A stretch of 64,000 nucleotides of DNA from Candidatus Gastranaerophilales bacterium (GTDB taxonomy: Bacteria > Cyanobacteriota > Vampirovibrionia > Gastranaerophilales > Gastranaerophilaceae), in the NCBI GenBank assembly GCA_944326545.1, contig CALVEH010000001.1:9422-73421 (forward strand), read 5' to 3'. Under the pieces are notes generated by a model. The model saw only the letters and a list, made by a program, of their open reading frames with translations. It did not search any database and had not been told where the DNA came from. The position numbers and the translations under genes were made by a program. Shown here piece by piece: positions 54,409 to 64,000 of the stretch. Each line of letters opens with the position of its first letter. Position 1 is the stretch's first letter.

Positions 54409-54433
54409 CTAAAAAACACCCTATCGGGTGTTA
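54409..54433 (-). terminator. Intrinsic terminator following the first tRNA-end remnant
   Basis: The minus strand reads AACACCC-GATA-GGGTGTT followed by TTTTTT. Confidence 0.6.
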
Positions 54434-54442
54434 TCTTAAAAA

Positions 54443-54453
54443 TGGAGCGAGAG
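54443..54453 (-). other. 11-nt copy of the tRNA-Gly 3' acceptor end (older att remnant?)
   Basis: The minus strand reads CTCTCGCTCCA, identical to the last 11 nt of the fragment at 54612-54635. The flanking sequence does not fold as a tRNA. Confidence 0.4.
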
Positions 54454-54577: not shown

Positions 54578-54609
54578 AAAAAAAGAGTCCTCATTGGGAC
54601 TCTTTTTTT
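54578..54609. terminator. Hairpin terminator immediately 3' of the tRNA-Gly fragment (minus strand)
   Basis: AAAAAAAGAGTCC-TCATT-GGGACTCTTTTTTT. Confidence 0.65.
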
Positions 54610-54611
54610 AA

Positions 54612-54635
54612 TGGAGCGAGAGACGAGGCTCGAAC
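54612..54635 (-). other. tRNA-Gly 3' fragment (T-loop to CCA), probable attachment-site copy bounding the integrative element
   Basis: The minus strand reads GTTCGAGCCTCGTCTCTCGCTCCA: T-loop TTCGAGC, T-stem CTCGT, acceptor CTCTCGC, discriminator U, CCA. Compare the E. coli tRNA-Gly end ...GTTCGAGTCTCGTTTCCCGCTCCA. The upstream 5' part of the tRNA is absent. Confidence 0.7.
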
Positions 54636-54862
54636 ACATCTTTTTTGTTTTAGTAATTTAAAATTTTGTTTTGTAATCTATTGTATTATTCAATCTTCAC
54701 AATTTCTATTTTTGCTAATGTTTAGTAATTTTTAGGGACTATTTGTAAAATTAGTCCCTTTTAGGGCCCTTTTTTAATTAAATTTATAATAATTTTCTTT
54801 AGATGCTATTGCAGATTAAAGTATTCCACGTTATAACATTTGTTAACAAATAAGGAGTTAAT

Positions 54863-57800
54863 GTGAACGAAGAAAATATAAAACAAATAGTATTAAACAT
54901 ATTACAAAATTGGGGATTTGATAAAGATGAGATACAACTTGAAACAAGTTTTACTATCAAATTCGGTAAAAGTGTTGCAAGGGTTGATAATTTAAAGCCT
55001 ATTACAACCGCATCGCCAAGAGCAGATATTTTAGTAACAAAAAACAATAAGAACCTGTTTGTATTTGAATTAAAAGCGGATAGTGTACAAATAGATGATG
55101 AAGATATAAAGCAGGGAATATCTTACGCAAGGTTGACAGAATCAATTACTCCTTATGTTGTAATTACCAATTGTAAAGAAACAAGAATATTTAATGCATT
55201 TAATAATAAAGAATTAAAACAAGATGATGAAAATTTTACGATTAAAATTAAAAATTTTGACTATACATTATCTACTGATATAGAAAACCTTTATTATCAA
55301 GCAACAAAATATTTAATAGGGATGTCTTCACAAAATCTCTCTATTTTTTGTAAACAACAAATAGAATCCCGAATGGAAACATTAAAAGGTACAAATATAA
55401 ATGACGATGAAAAATATATACCCGAGTTATTTATTGAACGAGAGGCTATTGTTGAATGTTTTGAAGATTTCTTAAAATCAGACTCAACATGTTTTTCTAT
55501 AATAGGTGAGTCAGGTACAGGGAAAACTAATGTTATTTGTGATTTAGCTTTAAAATATGCTTCTGATAATTATCCAAATTATCTTTCATATTTTTATACA
55601 TGTCATGAATTATATAATAGTATTGGTGATAATTTAAAAGAAGATTTCAATCTTCACTTCACTCAACAGAATACAGAAGAGCAAATTGTTAAAAAATTAG
55701 CAGATTTTTCTGATAAGCAAACAATTATATTTTTTGATGCAATAGATGAAAGAAACAATAACAATTTTCCTGTGGAATTTAACAATTTTGTTAGAATAGC
55801 CAAGGATAAAGGTATTAAAATTTGTTTTACCTGTAAAGATATTGAATACGAAAGATTTTTAAAAAATAATGGCAACCCAACTTTTATTACTAAATCTATT
55901 TATTCTATTGATAACAGTAATATTAGTTTTTCTTTAAATAATTTTTCAGATAATGAATATAAAAAAGTAGAGTCATGTTACAAAGAGAAATATGATCTTT
56001 TAGATATCCCAAGCGATATTAGCTATGAATTGAAAAATGGGTTTATGCTAAGAATATATTCTGAAATACATAAAAATAAAAGAAAATTTCGGGCACAAAA
56101 TATTGTTGAAATGATGCAAGAATATTTAGAACAAAAATTAGCAAAAATGTATAACTCACAATATGACAAAGACATTGCAAATAATATTCTTATTGAAACA
56201 GCTAGACATATTTGGGAACAATCTATAGGTAAAGATGTAAATGCATTTCCAACAATATATCGTATGTCTGATAAAATATTAGAAAAAGATTTAAAGACTG
56301 CTTTAAACTTGCGGATTAATGAAAAAATCCCCAATGAATTATTTGAACATAAAATATTACAAAAAAATCTTTATGAAGATATCTTTATAAGTTTTTATTA
56401 TACAAGATTTAGGGACTATATAATAGGATTTATGTCTCTTAAGTTAGATACTTTATCAAGCTTAGAATTTAGTAATTTATTACCAACTTTATATTCAAGC
56501 AATATTGGTATTAGTATTGTTCAATGGTATTATCAATTTGCGAATAGTAACCATAAAGAATTAATTGAGCAGTTCTTTATAGGCAAGATTTTAAGTTTTA
56601 TTAGTGCATATAATTACTTAATAGATATGTATTTTAAAGAGCTAAAAGATATTATTTGTCCTAATGTAAAAGAAAAAATTGCTATTGGTATTATAAAAGA
56701 GCCCATTAATCCCTTTTATTTTTTCTACCCTGCAAAGACCAATAATGATATTATAACATTTTTTGATGATTATGATAGTTATAAAAATGCATACGAAAGC
56801 ATAGGCGGAATTTCAACAGCTTTAAATATAGATGATGAATGTAATATGAAAGCAATTGCTTTCAAAAGATTAATTGAAGATGTTTTAAGAGCATTGAAAA
56901 ATCCTTATAGCAGAGTGTTTGGCGGATATCCTAAGTATTACCCAAAATCTTTTTTTAATCCTAAAAATAATAAAATTATTTTAAACGAAAGAGTCTATTC
57001 TTTATTTGATAATTATTCACATTTATTGGGTTATAAATATCAGGTAAATCTACAAGAAAGTGATTTTTCATACTCAAGATATAAGCAAAATATATTTCCT
57101 ATTAAAATAAATGATGTTTTAAATAAAATTAAGAGATTAAAAATTAAAATTTTTCTTGATAATGCAGAAAATACAGATTTTGATAAAACTATATTTTCAT
57201 TTGATGGCAATGACAATGTTTTAGAATACGATGATTGTAAAATTAATAGTTTTATTAAATCTAATAGAATTTTACCTGATATTAAAGTTGAGGGAATTGA
57301 TGAGTTAGAAAATCACTTACGTTTATATAAACACTTTAGTGATACTCTTGACTTTCCACTGCCTAAACCAGATATAGAAACAAAAATACCTCTGAAAATT
57401 TATGAAACAATAAATGGAACAACAGTAAGTAGATTAGGAGATGACATTATTCGCGACATATATAGTAAGAAACAGAGGAATAAGTATTATCGTCAATGGT
57501 TTTATAAAATGTATAATGTCTATATTTCATATGTCGAAGAATTTTTTCCTCGTATTAAAAATTATTTATACACATATTCAAACCTTCCTATAGCTATAAA
57601 TTATAAGATAAATGATTGTGATGACGATATTAATAACTCTCTACATTGTCAGTTTTGTTATGAAATATTGTATAATCAAGACCAAGATGAATTAGTAAAA
57701 TTGACAGAAGTAAATTCTTTTTCAAGCAAATATAACGGTTGGAGAATGATGCCAGCTTATCCTGAAACAATAGAAGAAAATGTTATACTAATGATTTCAG

Positions 57801-57883
57801 ATGAAATAAAAAATATTTATAAAAGAATAGCTATGGAAGAAAATATTGAGCTTTTTGAAAATCATTATATTTCACATTTTTAG
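54863..57883 (+). CDS. 1006-aa protein: N-terminal HsdR-N/Mrr-like PD-(D/E)xK domain, NACHT/STAND-like P-loop NTPase, ~650-aa unassigned C-terminal region (candidate NLR-like defence protein)
   Basis: GTG start 5 nt after AAGGAG. RADILVTKNNKNLFVFELKAD (D..ExK), QGISYARL, VVITNCKETRIF. Walker A IIGESGTGKTNV. Walker B TIIFFDAIDERNN. The rest is N/K/I/Y/F-rich with no recognised motif. Confidence 0.6.
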   Translation: MNEENIKQIVLNILQNWGFDKDEIQLETSFTIKFGKSVARVDNLKPITTASPRADILVTKNNKNLFVFELKADSVQIDDEDIKQGISYARLTESITPYVVITNCKETRIFNAFNNKELKQDDENFTIKIKNFDYTLSTDIENLYYQATKYLIGMSSQNLSIFCKQQIESRMETLKGTNINDDEKYIPELFIEREAIVECFEDFLKSDSTCFSIIGESGTGKTNVICDLALKYASDNYPNYLSYFYTCHELYNSIGDNLKEDFNLHFTQQNTEEQIVKKLADFSDKQTIIFFDAIDERNNNNFPVEFNNFVRIAKDKGIKICFTCKDIEYERFLKNNGNPTFITKSIYSIDNSNISFSLNNFSDNEYKKVESCYKEKYDLLDIPSDISYELKNGFMLRIYSEIHKNKRKFRAQNIVEMMQEYLEQKLAKMYNSQYDKDIANNILIETARHIWEQSIGKDVNAFPTIYRMSDKILEKDLKTALNLRINEKIPNELFEHKILQKNLYEDIFISFYYTRFRDYIIGFMSLKLDTLSSLEFSNLLPTLYSSNIGISIVQWYYQFANSNHKELIEQFFIGKILSFISAYNYLIDMYFKELKDIICPNVKEKIAIGIIKEPINPFYFFYPAKTNNDIITFFDDYDSYKNAYESIGGISTALNIDDECNMKAIAFKRLIEDVLRALKNPYSRVFGGYPKYYPKSFFNPKNNKIILNERVYSLFDNYSHLLGYKYQVNLQESDFSYSRYKQNIFPIKINDVLNKIKRLKIKIFLDNAENTDFDKTIFSFDGNDNVLEYDDCKINSFIKSNRILPDIKVEGIDELENHLRLYKHFSDTLDFPLPKPDIETKIPLKIYETINGTTVSRLGDDIIRDIYSKKQRNKYYRQWFYKMYNVYISYVEEFFPRIKNYLYTYSNLPIAINYKINDCDDDINNSLHCQFCYEILYNQDQDELVKLTEVNSFSSKYNGWRMMPAYPETIEENVILMISDEIKNIYKRIAMEENIELFENHYISHF

Positions 57884-59259
57884 GAAATACCCATTAATTT
57901 ACTATAAAACTCATCCATCATACTGGCAACTTGTGCTTCTTTACTTTTAATTATGTGTGAATATGTGTTTAGTGTGATGTTTTTGTCTGCATGCCCGAGA
58001 CGACCGCTTACTGTTACAACATCTTCACCTGAAGCAATCATTATACTTGCGTTTGTATGTCGAAGTTGATGAAAGGTTATCTTTGGGAGGTTGTGTCTTT
58101 CTAAGAATTTTATAAACCACTTATATGGCAAGTTTGGATTCATTGCTGTTCCATCTTCAAGCACAAAAACATATGGTTCGTTTTTCCAGGCAGTACCAAG
58201 CTTGAGTTTCTGTTGTATTTGTTGGTGTTTATATTGTTTTAACAAGCTCATTACTGTTTGAGATACAGTTACAATTCTGACTCCTGCTTCTGTTTTGGGT
58301 TTATCCTTTATTGTTCCGTAACCTACAATATAATGTCTTTGCTTATTTATGCTTATTTGTGAAGCATCAAAATTAATATCATCCCAAGTTAAACCTGTTA
58401 ATTCACTTCTTCTTAATCCTGTATCAATAGCTAAAGAAATCATTGCTGCCAAGATTAAAGGTTCTGTACTCAAAGCTTTTAACATTTCTGCAACTTGTTT
58501 ATCATCATAATACTTAGCTTTTGACTTTTGTACTTTCTTCATATCAATCCTTTGCATAGGATTTTCTTTGATTATATTCCACTTAACTGCAGTTGAAAGA
58601 ATTGATCTAATTATGCCCATATGATTACGTATTGTTTTTTCTGAAAGCGGTTTGCTCTTTGAACAAGTAAACATTTGTTTTATATTCAGGTTATAAGCAT
58701 CACAAATTTTTTTAGCTATTTCGTAATCGGTAATATAGCCTTTTTTAAGTCTTCTACAAGATTTTACAGATAGCCCTGATAATTCTTGCATTTGTAGAAT
58801 AGGCAATGGCAGCAATCTTTCAATAAGCTTCGTTGTAGGAATATATTTACTATCTAATCTCATATCGGATTCATGCAAGTTTTGATAAAACTGTAGCAAG
58901 TGTGTTGGCTGTATATTACTTATTTTTATATGTCCCATTGCAGGAAGAATTCTATCATTTAACTTTTGTTTGTAAGCAACAAGGGTTGTGGGTGTGAGAT
59001 TTATTTCTGCATAATCTTTAAACCATCGTTGAGTAAATTCTTCAAATGTTATTTTTTCTCCATCAAGATATGTACCATTTTGCACTTCTTGTTCAAATAA
59101 TACAAGCTGCCTATTTAATTCCTTTTCTACTTGCTTTGGGGTTAATGTTTTATCTAGTTTTATTGTTTTTCTTTTGCGTAACTTTTTACCATTTGAGTTA
59201 TAGCCTTGACAGACCGTTAATCTGTATGTGTATTCTGAAACTTGTTCATAAAATGCCAT
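57880..59259 (-). CDS. int: Tyrosine recombinase / phage-type integrase
   Basis: C-terminal catalytic region: GLRRSELTGLTWDDI (Arg), HQLRHTNASIM (His-x-x-Arg), GRLGHADKNITLNTYSH (His...Tyr). N-terminal arm-binding and SAM-like core-binding regions. 459 aa. Confidence 0.9.
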   Translation of the reverse strand: MAFYEQVSEYTYRLTVCQGYNSNGKKLRKRKTIKLDKTLTPKQVEKELNRQLVLFEQEVQNGTYLDGEKITFEEFTQRWFKDYAEINLTPTTLVAYKQKLNDRILPAMGHIKISNIQPTHLLQFYQNLHESDMRLDSKYIPTTKLIERLLPLPILQMQELSGLSVKSCRRLKKGYITDYEIAKKICDAYNLNIKQMFTCSKSKPLSEKTIRNHMGIIRSILSTAVKWNIIKENPMQRIDMKKVQKSKAKYYDDKQVAEMLKALSTEPLILAAMISLAIDTGLRRSELTGLTWDDINFDASQISINKQRHYIVGYGTIKDKPKTEAGVRIVTVSQTVMSLLKQYKHQQIQQKLKLGTAWKNEPYVFVLEDGTAMNPNLPYKWFIKFLERHNLPKITFHQLRHTNASIMIASGEDVVTVSGRLGHADKNITLNTYSHIIKSKEAQVASMMDEFYSKLMGIS

Positions 59260-59348
59260 TATTAATGTCTTCTCCTTTTATTTTTATTATGACAATCTTT
59301 TGTAAATTACGCTGCTATTTTCCTGTATTCCATTGCAGTATAAGGGCT

Positions 59349-60242
59349 TTAACTATGTGATTTTATGCACTTCAGATAATGTTCATTGAAATCTTTACAC
59401 CCACAAGTCATTTTAACTCGTTTGAATACAGGGTATTTTTCAATAATTTTTGAAGCAACTTTGTTGCCTTCTTCATCATTATCAAGGTATAGGAAAAACT
59501 TTTTGTACTTTGTAAAATCCGCTTGCGAAATGTATTTAAGTAAAGATTGAACACCGTTCGAAGGAGTTACAATGTGATAGTATTCTAACTGTCTTTTTTC
59601 TTGCAGATACTGATATAATGCGTATCCGTCAAAGTAGCCTTCTACTACAGCCAATGCTTCCGTTGTCGGCTTGTAGGAATTAATCATTGCAAGACCAGTA
59701 GGGGCACCTTTTTCACGTCTTAATCCATCTTTGCCTAAGTTTAGCGGTCTATACTCAAAACCTAAAATTATATTGCTCTTTTCTGTAGAATACTGGAATG
59801 TAGGTATTACCCATCGTTTTTTATACTCATCAATTCCAATTTTAACAGCAGTCACTGTTTCCATCGTTAAACCTCTTTTTTTATTTAAAAAGCGAAGTCG
59901 TGTAATTGATTTTTGCAATGCATCATTACAATCTTGTAGATATGTTCTAAATTCAACCTGTTTTTGTACTGTAAAAAATCTTTTATACCTGTCTGTATTT
60001 TCAAGATTGTAAAAAGACTTTAAACTGATTTTATTTTTGTTGCTTTTAAATATTTCTTTCAGTAATTTTGGTGCGTGACTTTCATCTGCAAAGCACCATA
60101 AAACACCTTTTGCTGCATTGAATTTCAAGTTATCTCTACCAGTATCTTTACAAAGTGGACATTGCCAAATATATTCATCTCCAGACTGAGATTCTGGTTC
60201 TCCAAAATAATTTTTCAATACATTTAAATTAAGTCCATTCAT
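59349..60242 (-). CDS. Toprim-domain primase-like protein with an N-terminal zinc finger
   Basis: CPLCKDTGRDNLKFNAAKGVLWCFADESH zinc-finger-like segment. AVVEGYFDGYAL (Toprim Glu) and YLDNDEEGNK (DxD). Confidence 0.6.
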   Translation of the reverse strand: MNGLNLNVLKNYFGEPESQSGDEYIWQCPLCKDTGRDNLKFNAAKGVLWCFADESHAPKLLKEIFKSNKNKISLKSFYNLENTDRYKRFFTVQKQVEFRTYLQDCNDALQKSITRLRFLNKKRGLTMETVTAVKIGIDEYKKRWVIPTFQYSTEKSNIILGFEYRPLNLGKDGLRREKGAPTGLAMINSYKPTTEALAVVEGYFDGYALYQYLQEKRQLEYYHIVTPSNGVQSLLKYISQADFTKYKKFFLYLDNDEEGNKVASKIIEKYPVFKRVKMTCGCKDFNEHYLKCIKSHS

Positions 60243-60379
60243 TTTTTTATTTACTCCTCTCCAAATTTGCGGTTTTTCCAGTAAATCCCAAGCAACTCAT
60301 AGGACTTCGGATTTACGGTTATGGTAATTGCCGCAATACCACTATTAAATAGCAATTACGACAATTACTATTTTGCGGA

Positions 60380-61981
60380 TTAAATTAAATCGCCAAGTTC
60401 TTTTACACCTGGGCTTAATTCTTTTGTCTCTAAATGAACTAGTCTATATTCAGTACCAGAGTTATTGTTTATCAGGCGTTTTTCTAATGTATAGTTTTCT
60501 GATTTTGCCATATCTGCAACTATTGCTATATCATTTTCAAAATTTTTTATAAACTTATCTCTTGAGTATCCAAATTTTTGACGATGATTTGTCATCAATT
60601 CTGTTTTACTGAAATATTTGCCTTCATTTTCTAAAAAGAACTGCAGCATACGGTCGTATTTATCCTCAAATGAAGGACGATAGCGAATGAACGAATAAAA
60701 ATCTTTACTAAGCCGTTCTGTTGTTTCTATGGCCATTTCCATATCTTTTGTATTGATGTAGCATTCTTGAGGATGATTAATACAAGCATACATACAGGCT
60801 ATCTTAAGAGCCTTTAGCTCTCTAGATTTAATTTCTTTTTGAAGAAGTGTATTCACCGTTTGATTTTCTAATTCATCAAGCTTTACTTTATATGGATAAA
60901 ACACATTGATATTGGTATCTTCTAAAAGTTCATAACAATTTTTAAATTGGACTGATTCAAAAATTTCATACAATTTTTCGCCTAAGGCTTTTAAATCTTG
61001 ATAATATTGTTTTTCTTGTTTTAAAGCCTCTTTAGCATTTTTTTCTATCTTGTATGGTTCCTTTTTATCCATAAATGTTATAATGCAACGTCTTCCCAAA
61101 CCTGCTTCCATTAGCAAATTAAATATTTTTTCTAGACTACTGCCTTTAAACAACGTTGGATCTGAGTACATAAGTGTATTAACGGGTATGTCTTCTATAT
61201 TTTCCTGACGTTGCTCGGTTTTAATAGACTTTGATATAATTTTGCCGTCATATGCTTCAAACAAAATATTAAAAAACAATGTCTGTTCTGAAGTCATTTT
61301 ATTGAGATATTGTCCAAGTTCAGCAAATTTAATCATCAGACTTCCAAATCCAGCTTCTTTAAATACCTTTGCATCATAATATATTCCTTCTCTAGTCCCA
61401 TCAGAAACTTCTATTGTCATATTTCTAAATTCTTTAATTTTTTCTTTTATATATAACTCTTTCGCCTTTGTTTGCTTTTCATCAGGAAATTTTATGTTTG
61501 CTTGCTGCTCTATCTCCAACTTTCTATTTTGTTTCAGTTCTAAGACTGCATTCTTAAACCAATTTTTAAATGGGAAGAATACATACTCATCTAGTTCATT
61601 AGAAATTCTATCTTTACCCATACCAGAAGGCATAAATAGAGTTGAATAATAATTTGGATAACCAGCTTTGCCTATTTCAAGGTATTTTATACGTTTGGCA
61701 GTAAACATCTGCGCTATCTTAGCATGTACAATGTTTATTATTGAATTGATTGCTATTGCTGGATAACGATTTTTAATGACTTGCACGATTTGTGCTACTG
61801 GTACAGGCATGTTCAAATTACTGATGTCACAAATAATCTCTTCAGAAGAATTTATTCTACAGTATGGGCTCATCTCTTCTAAGCCTGACTTATTCTTACA
61901 AGTTGCCTCAGGCAAGTAGTTGTTAAATGTAACTTTTTCTTGAACGTCACTAAATGGCGTTCTAATTGATATTTCTTTCAT
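60380..61981 (-). CDS. Replication-associated protein, DUF3987-like (putative helicase/loader)
   Basis: ATG at 61981 lies 1 nt after the upstream stop (TAA-A-ATG). LFMPSGMGKDR (degenerate P-loop) and AGLGRRCIITFMD resemble DUF3987 proteins found next to primases in islands. Assignment is by resemblance only. Confidence 0.4.
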   Translation of the reverse strand: MKEISIRTPFSDVQEKVTFNNYLPEATCKNKSGLEEMSPYCRINSSEEIICDISNLNMPVPVAQIVQVIKNRYPAIAINSIINIVHAKIAQMFTAKRIKYLEIGKAGYPNYYSTLFMPSGMGKDRISNELDEYVFFPFKNWFKNAVLELKQNRKLEIEQQANIKFPDEKQTKAKELYIKEKIKEFRNMTIEVSDGTREGIYYDAKVFKEAGFGSLMIKFAELGQYLNKMTSEQTLFFNILFEAYDGKIISKSIKTEQRQENIEDIPVNTLMYSDPTLFKGSSLEKIFNLLMEAGLGRRCIITFMDKKEPYKIEKNAKEALKQEKQYYQDLKALGEKLYEIFESVQFKNCYELLEDTNINVFYPYKVKLDELENQTVNTLLQKEIKSRELKALKIACMYACINHPQECYINTKDMEMAIETTERLSKDFYSFIRYRPSFEDKYDRMLQFFLENEGKYFSKTELMTNHRQKFGYSRDKFIKNFENDIAIVADMAKSENYTLEKRLINNNSGTEYRLVHLETKELSPGVKELGDLI

Positions 61982-61982
61982 T

Positions 61983-62213
61983 TTATAACCCAACCTTTCT
62001 TATCTCATTTTTAGTAGAAGCTGTATTACTGTTAATCATTTCTCCGTTATTTAAATAGTCAATAAGGCTTTCGATATTAATGAGGTACTTCTTTCCAGCT
62101 CTGACATATTTCACCTTATTTTGCAAGACCATTTGTCTTATACGATATTTGGCCAGTCCGGAAATTTTTGAGGCTTTGTTGATTGTTTCCATTTGTGGAA
62201 AATTTTTGTTCAT
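61983..62213 (-). CDS. AlpA/excisionase-family helix-turn-helix protein
   Basis: 76 aa. INKASKISGLAKYRIRQMVLQNKVKYVRAGKKYLINIESL is the excisionase/MerR-type winged HTH pattern. First gene of the alpA-rep-pri-int operon. Confidence 0.65.
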   Translation of the reverse strand: MNKNFPQMETINKASKISGLAKYRIRQMVLQNKVKYVRAGKKYLINIESLIDYLNNGEMINSNTASTKNEIRKVGL

Positions 62214-62373
62214 TATTTTCTCCTTTCCTTAAATGTTAAGAGTGTCTATCTTTGTTTTATCCCAAGCTAGCATGTCTGAAGTCGAAATTTTCAAAAAAAG
62301 AAATTAATGAATATTTATGCTACAAAATAAATTATTGTTGTATTTATGCAACTTTATGTGCTAATATTGAGCA

Positions 62374-63042
62374 ATGAAAAAAAGACAAGAGAATTCCCTA
62401 TACAAAGAGCTAAAAAAGACATTTGGAAAAAGGTGCAGCGATTTAAGATGTGATGATGAAAAAGAAATTCAAGAGAATGGAAAAACAACATATATCAATA
62501 CATCAATGCAAAAATTAGCAGATAAATTTTCTTCGATAATAAAAGCTAGCTACGATAAATCCAAAATATCTAGAATTGAAAAAGGAACAGCCGAAATAAC
62601 TATTTTGGATTTATTTCTTTACAGTGAATATTACAAAGTCTCTTACAATTTTTTACTTGGGCAATCACGTAACAAAAAAGATAAGTATTTTAGTGCATTT
62701 GAAAAATACGGTTTATCAGACCAAACACTTGATATTTTAAGTAATATAGTAAAAAATAAGGGAAATAAAGAAATAAAAGCTCTAAATGCTATTTTTGCAA
62801 GTGGTTTAGCTCAACCCTTTTTAGAATATTTGTATGATTTTTTTTACAATGATTATGAAAAACGCTTACCCCAAAACTATAAAGTGACTGGTGGTGAAAT
62901 TATTAAAGTTGAATTAAGGGCAAAAGCGGGTAAGCTTGATCTAGGAGAAGATTATGTACCTCTTGAAAAAATGAATATCATAAATAGACAAATAGTCTAC
63001 GATAAGCTCAATGAAATAAAACAAGCCTTACAGGATAAATAA
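62374..63042 (+). CDS. HTH (Xre/cI-like) protein with a C-terminal extension, divergent from the replication operon
   Basis: SMQKLADKFSSIIKASYDKSKISRIEKGTAEITILDLFLYSEYYKVSYNFLLGQS resembles an Xre-type HTH. 222 aa. Confidence 0.45.
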   Translation: MKKRQENSLYKELKKTFGKRCSDLRCDDEKEIQENGKTTYINTSMQKLADKFSSIIKASYDKSKISRIEKGTAEITILDLFLYSEYYKVSYNFLLGQSRNKKDKYFSAFEKYGLSDQTLDILSNIVKNKGNKEIKALNAIFASGLAQPFLEYLYDFFYNDYEKRLPQNYKVTGGEIIKVELRAKAGKLDLGEDYVPLEKMNIINRQIVYDKLNEIKQALQDK

Positions 63043-63062
63043 GAAGAAGCTAAAATATAATC

Positions 63063-63386
63063 TTATATTATAGACCTATAAAACCTGTAAAGCAAGGTTA
63101 CATCAACAGATTCATTTTTAATAGCGTTAATCAATTCTTCTTTCAATTCGTCAGTATTTTCTAAATGTTGAAAATTAAAAAGCTCTGACGGTTCTACATC
63201 AAGTGCAAAAAGTATGTTAGATAAAGTTTCTGCTGTAATAAAATTGTTACCGCACTCAATTTTGCTGAGGTTTCTTTCACCAATGCCAACAAGTTCAGCC
63301 AGCTTTTCCTGAGTCAAACCTTTTCTTGTGCGGATTTCTTTGATTCTTCTGCCTAAAAGTTTTTTTATGTCTCTATTATGTCCCAT
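63063..63386 (-). CDS. Xre-family transcriptional regulator
   Basis: LLGRRIKEIRTRKGLTQEKLAELVGIGERNLSKIECGNNFITAETLSNILFAL is a canonical HTH_XRE. Confidence 0.85.
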   Translation of the reverse strand: MGHNRDIKKLLGRRIKEIRTRKGLTQEKLAELVGIGERNLSKIECGNNFITAETLSNILFALDVEPSELFNFQHLENTDELKEELINAIKNESVDVTLLYRFYRSII

Positions 63387-63548
63387 TGCATCCTCTTTTA
63401 TGTATGATAATTTATGCTATTCCCAAAAATAACGACTTTAAAAACTCTTTAATCATTGACAGAGAGTTTTTAATTATGGATAATAGAGTTTAAAAGTTCC
63501 TGTTTTGGTTAATTTTATGTTTTTAATGCTGACAACAAGGAGATTGTT

Positions 63549-64000
63549 ATGCAAAATGTAGTACATAAGGAAACTAGGCTTAACGAAATTTCCCTCAAAG
63601 TAAAAAATTGTGAGGATTGTTCATTACACAAAAACCGTAAATGCTCTGTTTTTTCAAAAGGAAATACTAATGCTCAAATAATGCTTATAGGTGAAGCTCC
63701 AGGAAAACTCGAAAATGAAAAGGGCTTGCCTTTTGTTGGTAAATCAGGTGAGTTGTTAGACAGCTTATTGAAACAAGCGGGCTTTGAAAATCCAGAATCA
63801 GATATTTATTTTTGCAATGTAGTAAAATGCCGTCCTGTTAAAAATAACAAAGACAGAAAACCATCTAAGGAAGAAATTTTAAGTTGTAAGAAATTTTTGT
63901 TTGAACAAATTGACATCATTAAACCTAAAATCATTATACTTTGCGGTAATACAGCTAAAAATGTATTTGGCATCAATGAAACCATGAAAACTAGTCACGG
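63549..64000 (+). CDS. Uracil-DNA glycosylase family 4, N-terminal part (continues past window end)
   Basis: AAGGAG lies 6 nt upstream of the ATG. CEDCSLHKNRKCSVFSKGNTNAQIMLIGEAPGKLENEKGLPFVGKSGELL...CNVVKCRP are family-4 UDG motifs. Confidence 0.8.
   Translation, partial: MQNVVHKETRLNEISLKVKNCEDCSLHKNRKCSVFSKGNTNAQIMLIGEAPGKLENEKGLPFVGKSGELLDSLLKQAGFENPESDIYFCNVVKCRPVKNNKDRKPSKEEILSCKKFLFEQIDIIKPKIIILCGNTAKNVFGINETMKTSH

Follow-up and report, generated by a model that had tools for sequence, protein, structure and literature searches.

What does a gene of 1006 codons, which lies between a fragment of a tRNA-Gly gene and an integrase gene, do for the bacterium or for the mobile element that carries it? 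The gene occupies positions 54863..57883 of a stretch of 64,000 nucleotides (nt) of Candidatus Gastranaerophilales DNA (assembly GCA_944326545.1, contig CALVEH010000001.1, positions 9,422 to 73,421 of the forward strand), and this whole stretch is called the window. An original prediction, which was made from the letters and their translations, read the gene as a single-gene anti-phage system that joins a nuclease effector, a STAND/NACHT NTPase and a long C-terminal region. In this study, which was based on a family alignment, profile and structure searches and a survey of the loci of homologues, we came to the view that the protein of 1006 amino acids (aa) is probably a single-protein NLR-like (STAND/NACHT-type) immune sensor-effector, which is carried as integrase-proximal cargo of an element in tRNA-Gly.

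Three-part architecture of the 1006-aa protein

The gene and its parts are given below with the evidence for each.

54863..57883, + strand: the 1006-aa gene, composed of a PD-(D/E)xK nuclease, a NACHT-like STAND NTPase and an alpha/beta C-terminal domain (open reading frame, Pfam, family alignment, AlphaFold2, Foldseek)
54852-54857, + strand: Shine-Dalgarno sequence AAGGAG, 5 nt 5' of the GTG
54863..55207, + strand: residues 1-115, HsdR-N/Mrr-type PD-(D/E)xK nuclease with D55, E69-x-K71 and Q84xxxY88 (Pfam HSDR_N_2, invariant residues)
55208..55429, + strand: residues 116-189, helical linker or pre-NTPase region in which A147, F162 and K184 are invariant (alignment, AlphaFold2)
55430..55852, + strand: residues 190-330, P-loop nucleotide-binding domain with Walker A GESGTGKT, Walker B IIFFDAIDE and the strand ICFTCK at the sensor-1 position (motifs, sub-threshold Pfam, Foldseek)
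55853..56656, + strand: residues 331-598, helical domain, winged-helix domain (beta-hairpin 499-511) and second helical domain of the STAND module (AlphaFold2 secondary structure, NLRC4 alignment)
56657..57880, + strand: residues 599-1006, alpha/beta C-terminal domain, putative sensor (AlphaFold2, Foldseek, profile searches)

The reading frame is uninterrupted over 1006 codons from a GTG start with AAGGAG upstream, as had been reported, and every peptide string that was quoted in the original prediction occurs in its translation. The base composition of the gene (41% A, 34% T) leads to an expectation of one stop per ~10 codons (stop probability 0.096 per codon), at which 1006 stop-free codons have a probability of about 10^-44. 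An identical protein was present on 11-12 independent metagenome contigs. The GTG start is supported by the homologues, whose alignment with the 1006-aa protein begins at residue 1 and in which E3/E4 are nearly invariant. The gene has the lowest G+C in the window, with 24.9%; the other island sequence in the window has 31.0% and the 54.6 kb of chromosome have 35.2%, with 31.4% in their lowest 3-kb segment. The earlier spot counts of two sequence lines were right in their direction, the gene being G+C-poor (24.9% vs. 35.2%), but rough in their precision.

Residues ~1-115 had been read as an HsdR-N/Mrr-type PD-(D/E)xK module, and the profile search bore this out. Pfam PF13588 (HSDR_N_2) matches residues 2-114 with 37 bits, compared to a gathering cutoff of 25, and it was matched by 45/45 members of the family. 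In the 45-sequence family alignment, D55, E69, K71, Q84 and Y88 are invariant and form a D...ExK triad and a QxxxY motif. By the fold, these are the putative catalytic residues, and QxxxY is a motif of HsdR/RecB-like nucleases. The HSDR_N_2 family is part of the PD-(D/E)xK superfamily (PMC3424549).

For residues ~200-310, a P-loop and a NACHT-style Walker B had been proposed, and both motifs proved to be conserved in a region whose fold matches STAND proteins. GESGTGKT and IIFFD follow the STAND P-loop patterns (Walker A GxxxxGK[ST], Walker B hhhhD), with G220, K221, D292 and E296 invariant and A293 and D295 conserved at a level of at least 90%. Moreover, DAIDE (D292-A293-I294-D295-E296) fits the signature D[GAS]hDE, by which NACHT is told apart from other STAND NTPases (Kibby et al. 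2022 preprint 10.1101/2022.07.19.500537; PMC12169576; also Koonin & Aravind 2000). A homologue from Solitalea carries the UniProt/UniRef label ‘Putative NTPase (NACHT family)’. Among the 45 family members, 37 matched NPHP3_N and 9 matched NACHT (E<=0.01), below the cutoffs, and 8 matched nSTAND5, 7 nSTAND3 and 3 NB-ARC. The NPHP3_N, nSTAND5 and nSTAND3 matches are weak and cover the P-loop and Walker B; the 1006-aa protein lies below the cutoffs of these families and by the Pfam rule is not a member of them.

An AlphaFold2 model of the 1006-aa protein, which was built on the family alignment, had a mean predicted local distance difference test score (pLDDT) of 81.6. Its top Foldseek matches in the PDB were NLRC4 (1.7e-7), Avs4 bound to a phage portal (2.3e-7), CED-4, Dark and Orc1/Cdc6, and the alignments to NLRC4, Avs4, CED-4 and Dark extended over 400-800 columns with a probability of 1.00. 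The model has helices at residues 363-470 and the beta-hairpin of a winged-helix domain (WHD) at 499-511, and thereby the order of nucleotide-binding domain (NBD), helical domain 1 (HD1) and WHD, a feature that is shared by Orc/Cdc6 proteins, which also match. This set of matches is the one expected for a STAND NBD-HD1-WHD module. By its motifs and its fold, the 1006-aa protein is a NACHT-like STAND NTPase.

The Orc1/Cdc6-DNA complexes scored almost equal to the NLRs in the fold search, and this, together with the HsdR-N/Mrr type of the nuclease, brings in the main rival explanation. According to it, the protein would be an NTP-dependent restriction-type nuclease, nearer to the type IV/Mrr-like enzymes or the DNA-bound Orc/Cdc6-like ATPases than to a pattern-recognition receptor, that senses nucleic acid directly (e.g., modified or foreign DNA), with its winged-helix and C-terminal domains binding DNA and not a phage protein. 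We consider such direct sensing unlikely; the D[GAS]hDE motif and the matches to NLRC4, Avs4, CED-4 and Dark are more in keeping with a STAND switch than with a DNA-loading ATPase.

The C-terminal ~650 residues had been left unassigned. The lack of recognisable repeats in this region stood, but its length did not, since ~270 aa (331-598) belong to the helical and winged-helix part of the STAND module and ~410 aa (599-1006) are unassigned. Modelled alone using AlphaFold2, residues 599-1006 (pLDDT 78, predicted template modelling score 0.76) form a mixed alpha/beta domain that has a long beta-hairpin and is free of repeats. The structure prediction and Foldseek search that had been suggested for this region revealed no structural match for residues 599-1006 in the PDB (best E=0.31, probability 0.04); a profile of the domain gave 0 matches among PDB sequences, and the Pfam scan of this part in the 45 members yielded no repeat family and no other domain. 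The domain is also the most divergent part of the protein, as the mean pairwise identity was 52% for the nuclease, 42% for the linker, 40% for the NBD, 34% for HD1-WHD and the second helical domain (HD2) and 25% for the C-terminal domain. The fall from 52% to 25% points to sensor-like behaviour, and divergence of this speed would be unusual for a module that recognises a chemical mark on DNA, which argues against direct nucleic-acid sensing. The STAND sensors published so far are for the most part TPR-like, WD40, LRR or FGE-sulfatase. It is conceivable, though on balance doubtful, that the ~410-aa alpha/beta domain represents a new class among STAND sensors, one without repeats, whose trigger lies outside those of Avs1-24 and the tested bNACHTs, and that it defines a Bacteroidota-centred anti-phage family missed by existing defence finders.

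Homologues and their genomic neighbourhoods

An exhaustive profile search returned 4098 cluster representatives (E<=1e-3; 829 of them at E<=1e-30), the majority of which were full-length (~1000 aa). The source databases give the members of the family no name beyond ‘HsdR N-terminal domain-containing protein’. The family was found at 72 loci of species-representative genomes, mostly in Bacteroidota, with scattered members in the Gastranaerophilales, Bacillota, Nitrospirota, Anaerolineae, several proteobacterial classes, Acidobacteriota, Planctomycetota, Spirochaetota and Cloacimonadota, and its distribution is patchy over about 10 phyla. The closest named homologue of the 1006-aa protein (57%) comes from a metagenome-assembled genome (MAG) of the Gastranaerophilales. 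The host of the gene is an uncultured bacterium of the gut, whose GlmS shares 91% identity with that of a MAG labelled Clostridium sp. and 71% with that of Candidatus Gastranaerophilales. Placement of the whole protein in a named defence or housekeeping family had been singled out as an outcome that would speak against the prediction, and the Pfam and PADLOC scans gave no such family. The whole-family profile had no useful match among PDB sequences (RFC5, E=0.75), and a Foldseek search of the full model against BFVD returned generic AAA+/RFC-like ATPases only.

More distant relatives cover parts of the protein. The phage family phrog_26510, of unknown function, matches residues 24-436, i.e., the nuclease and the NTPase (E=1.2e-11), and the match stops short of the C-terminal domain; on the basis of this match, phage or prophage genomes appear to carry relatives of the N-terminal two-thirds. 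On Agrobacterium Ti-type conjugative plasmids (H2-H12, e.g., NC_002377.1 130996-131703), proteins annotated ‘type I restriction endonuclease’ match residues 24-266 with 27% identity; these are nuclease-plus-linker relatives, whose C-terminal architecture may differ. In E. coli STEC411 (CP061244.1; L094 5079-7228), IS66 and integrase genes flank an unannotated distant relative of the nuclease-NTPase half, which appears to be fragmented and has intact HsdR-N-like motifs, the P-loop GDAQSGKS and the Walker B LMLAIDDVE. We considered whether this match (H15) could be bNACHT25 and rejected the identification, as the sequence is unannotated, broken up and only distantly related to the nuclease-NTPase part.

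The neighbourhood survey showed variable contexts, often with defence genes and not of the core genome, as the original prediction had anticipated. The family members stand alone: among 58 loci no conserved partner gene was found, and the largest neighbour cluster was present in 4/58. The idea of a two-gene system was rejected, since no neighbour family went beyond 4/58 loci. The immediate neighbours include GajA, Drt4, Drt6, RT_UG30, KAP NTPase, Eco57I, EcoEI-R and integrases. In raw counts, ten neighbours are tightly linked and co-oriented, of which five match defence models (type IIG restriction-modification, PifA/KAP, an Mrr nuclease, a type III restriction endonuclease-like helicase and a PLD/DrmC-like protein); the rest are a single housekeeping gene and four genes of unknown type. 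The association with known defence genes is seen in these raw counts and next to close orthologues. The frequency of restriction-modification components and type IV enzymes among the neighbours would also suit a nuclease that senses nucleic acid directly, as would the annotation of the distant plasmid relatives as ‘type I restriction endonuclease’; against such a nuclease, no conserved methyltransferase or specificity partner was found in the 58 loci.

Two orthologues are of help in placing the gene of the window. Directly upstream of an 81%-identical orthologue (L082) are AbiJ-like and DUF4238-Pers genes. A 57% orthologue (L083) has a full-length SIR2-pAgo on one side and a GmrSD/HEC-06-like gene on the other, and its element also carries TniB and a Mu-type transposase. 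At this locus, the SIR2-pAgo fusion (PADLOC 1202 bits) and the GmrSD/HEC-06-like gene, at L083 2293-5373 and 16469-18880, flank a TniB/Mu-transposase/integrase module; the locus is a compact defence island on a transposon, in a MAG from the gut.

Comparison with known immune proteins and proposed mechanism

The bacterial NACHT proteins bNACHT25 and bNACHT32 (clade 6) share with the 1006-aa protein the single polypeptide, the N-terminal Mrr-like PD-(D/E)xK DNase, the central NACHT with D[GAS]hDE and a non-repeat C-terminal domain. In bNACHT25, defence is lost when the active site of the nuclease is mutated (D48A; Kibby et al. 2022 preprint 10.1101/2022.07.19.500537; PMC12169576), and D48 has the same role as D55 of the 1006-aa protein. 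However, the C-terminal part of bNACHT25, which was compared by description, is the helical NCH1, whereas that of the 1006-aa protein is a ~410-aa alpha/beta domain. Moreover, bNACHT25 comes from E. coli, whereas the family of the 1006-aa protein is found mainly in Bacteroidota and gut Gastranaerophilales-like MAGs.

Avs4 (PDB 8DGF, bound to a phage portal) likewise unites an Mrr-like restriction endonuclease (REase), a STAND NTPase and a C-terminal sensor in one protein. It aligned with the AlphaFold2 model over 812 columns (Foldseek E=2.3e-7), but with a global TM score of only 0.21; the Avs/AVAST models of PADLOC do not match the 1006-aa protein, and there was no sequence-level PDB match. 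The chain of Avs4 is ~1540 aa long and its sensor is a large TPR-like helical repeat array, whereas the putative sensor of the 1006-aa protein is a compact alpha/beta domain without repeats. TPR-like is the usual type of Avs sensor (Lee et al. 2026, PMC13581612). The best structural match was NLRC4 (PDB 4KXF; E=1.7e-7, 400-480 columns), which shows the same NBD-HD1-WHD-HD2 order and a D[GAS]hDE-type Walker B, but the sequence identity was 13-14% and the 1006-aa protein has neither an LRR sensor nor a CARD.

By analogy, the 1006-aa protein would work like Avs4 and bNACHT25, but it is filed under neither, because the PADLOC match is limited to the P-loop, the Pfam NACHT match is below the cutoff and the C-terminal domain is neither TPR-like nor NCH1. 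A census by Lee et al. comprised 589 STAND clades and 684 sensor clusters (Lee et al. 2026, PMC13581612), and in the text of that paper no named Avs7-24 is described with the architecture of the 1006-aa protein. The family may already be contained in such broad STAND/NACHT censuses (Kibby et al.; Lee et al. 2026). The protein is most likely one of the single-protein anti-phage sensors of bacteria, a class that is well known already. The suggestion that its sensor region might be of an undescribed family held in so far as the domain has no Pfam or PDB relative, but novelty had been overrated, as REase-STAND/NACHT single-gene systems are well known.

Because single-gene REase-STAND immunity and integrase-proximal defence cargo are both established, the general picture would stay as it is. 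If active, the protein would add a nuclease-NACHT defence protein that goes undetected by PADLOC 2023. The Bacteroidota and the gut Gastranaerophilales-like bacteria, in which the family is common, are underrepresented in experimental work on phage defence. The compact alpha/beta putative sensor, for which there is no structural relative, would be a new recognition module, in which the ligand and the gating of a STAND module by a non-repeat domain could be studied.

Profile, motif and fold evidence agree on the architecture that had been predicted, namely a nuclease effector, a STAND/NACHT module and a long C-terminal region in a single gene. By analogy with Avs4 and bNACHT25, we infer a defence function, in which the C-terminal domain binds a trigger, the protein oligomerises and DNA is the substrate. 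At rest, the NTPase module would keep the protein monomeric and autoinhibited. The trigger, either a phage-encoded molecule or a host factor altered by the phage, would be bound by the C-terminal alpha/beta domain, which evolves fast, and the protein would then oligomerise in a nucleotide-dependent manner via its NBD-HD1-WHD module. The N-terminal PD-(D/E)xK domains would thereby be clustered and DNA cleavage turned on, and phage and/or host DNA would be destroyed (abortive infection).

A non-immune role is also to be considered, in which a STAND protein that acts as a regulator or as a DNA-repair or recombination factor came to lie on the island by chance. In the census, 391/589 STAND clades were not confidently defence-associated (Lee et al. 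2026, PMC13581612), and some homologues have housekeeping neighbours. We regard such a role as highly improbable for a protein that has a nuclease effector with intact catalytic residues, mobile carriage, a patchy distribution, variable and defence-rich neighbourhoods and a rapidly diverging C-terminus.

Several observations weigh against the interpretation as an NLR-like immune sensor-effector. Pfam NACHT (PF05729) gave 15 bits, compared to a cutoff of 26.7, and covered the P-loop region only; NPHP3_N reached 19.7 bits (cutoff 24.8) and nSTAND3 16.6 bits, below its cutoff, in the 1006-aa protein. According to Kibby et al. (10.1101/2022.07.19.500537), a conserved WHD histidine, equivalent to H443 of NLRC4, is a defining residue of NACHT. 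There is no His in the columns of residues 474-530 that are invariant or conserved at a level of at least 90%; the residues conserved there are L493, L499, F511, Y513, R517 and D518. Among the PADLOC 2023 and PADLOC 2.0 models, including Avs families 1-5, only PDC-M16A matched (E=7.5e-4, residues 190-233), a 45-residue P-loop match. GAPDH and a tRNA synthetase, both housekeeping, are also among the neighbours of the homologues. A scan for sigma-70-like promoters upstream of the gene gave no site on the + strand and no enrichment, a tblastn search against GenBank phage records had no match, and in the literature that was searched no experimental characterisation of any family member was found.

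The integrative element in tRNA-Gly

The 1006-aa gene is the first gene inside an element of ~12.26 kb that is integrated in the 3' end of tRNA-Gly. Two further contigs were used in delimiting it, L087, which is 100% identical to the window over 56276-64000, and L002, which is 12,284 nt long. The other features of the element in the window are as follows.

54600..54635, - strand: att direct repeat, made of the last 24 nt of tRNA-Gly(GCC) and 12 nt downstream, left element boundary (36-nt exact match to the far junction in L087)
54753..54769, + strand: AGTCCCTTTTAGGGCCC motif, candidate integrase/Xis arm-type site (direct repeat family D12, L002 143-164 and 12172-12193)
57880..59259, - strand: tyrosine integrase, convergent with the 1006-aa gene (Phage_integrase 92 bits and SAM-like domains)
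59349..60242, - strand: Toprim primase-like protein (Pfam Toprim_2; phrog_239 DNA primase/helicase)
60380..61993, - strand: DUF3987-like primase/helicase-associated protein (Pfam DUF3987 25 bits, cutoff 27; phrog_2135 DNA primase, E=2e-27)
61983..62213, - strand: possible HTH_17 (AlpA/Xis-like) small DNA-binding protein (Pfam HTH_17 23 bits, cutoff 27, weak)
63063..63386, - strand: HTH_3/cI-type repressor of the element

The att-like tRNA-Gly fragment that had been noticed earlier is real, being part of a 36-nt exact repeat of the 3' end of tRNA-Gly(GCC) and 12 nt more, for which 0 matches are expected by chance. In L087, the intact tRNA-Gly(GCC) stands at the other end of the island, outside the window, and the 12 nt beyond the tRNA part of the repeat are a portion of an island-borne terminator. 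L002 has the same 24 nt at both ends, 12,260 nt apart, and the right end of the element lies ~2.9 kb past the window. The att boundaries and the convergent integrase gene confirm that the gene is integrase-proximal cargo of an integrative element. The mobility of the gene is supported by these tRNA-Gly ends, by its G+C, the lowest in the window, by a decayed variant without the gene and by the patchy distribution over ~10 phyla.

The company of the integrase suggests a further explanation, in which the gene would serve the element, either as an addiction or stabilisation factor or by attacking a helper phage or rival elements, and would move with the integrase as a module. The stops of the two genes share 4 nt (57880-57883) with no terminator between them, so read-through of either gene would be antisense to the other. 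In L082, where the element adjoins tRNA-Ser, the 81%-identical orthologue has the same convergent arrangement with a 60%-identical integrase, and the stop overlap is kept. Only the block of the gene and the integrase (54854-59104, 4.3 kb) is shared with the window, with a DNA identity of 80%, and the L082 element otherwise has another replication module. Such co-conservation is what a module serving the element would show, and the satellite-like gene set (integrase, primase, Xis-like protein, cI-like repressor) is in line with it. However, most homologues are not beside an integrase, Phage_integrase being present in just 2/108 immediate neighbours (58 loci), and no conserved antitoxin-like partner was found. 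A role of this kind is not general for the family, and it is compatible with the defence explanation, of which it would largely be a special case; as an explanation in its own right, we hold it to be quite improbable.

The genes of the element in the window also include one for a 222-aa protein. No capsid or packaging genes were recognised among the element genes, and the set resembles, in its gene content, that of a phage satellite or a small integrative mobilisable element. Past the right end of the window (L002 8944-11893) are genes for UDG-like, superinfection-immunity (phrog_1039), 281-aa, 144-aa and WG_beta_rep proteins, which may constitute a second cargo region.

The same chromosomal site was found in another strain (L086, 1-14632, sample ERZ16268218), the backbone of which is 99.2% identical to the window. 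This variant has neither the att nor the 1006-aa gene, in place of which stand three open reading frames (359, 147 and 117 aa) with no Pfam or PADLOC match. Its integrase ends at residue 426 and lacks the last 33 codons, including the catalytic Tyr region, and its tRNA-Gly is internally deleted, with 12 nt of the 5' end left. A clean exchange of cargo at a hotspot was considered and rejected, as the truncated integrase, the missing att and the deleted tRNA mark a decayed variant; the locus supports a presence/absence polymorphism only. Gene-bearing and decayed variants of the element (L005, L086) co-occur in one metagenome, and the variant without the gene indicates that the 1006-aa gene is dispensable for the host.

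Two minor observations concern the ends of the island. Repeats of the form AGTCCCTTTT[A/T]GGGCCC are present in direct orientation ~120-150 nt inside both ends, and from their placement they are candidate arm-type integrase or Xis sites. Rfam and ARAGORN detected no RNA gene near the locus in the window, the tRNA fragment being below their detectable length. A second copy of AATGGAGCGAGAG, the core of the tRNA-Gly 3' end, is found at 54441-54453, 170 nt outside the island boundary, where it comes shortly after a terminator-like hairpin (54415-54432); ~0.002 such 13-mers are expected by chance. This copy may have been left by a previous integration into the same tRNA site, or it may be the 3' terminus of a different RNA gene.

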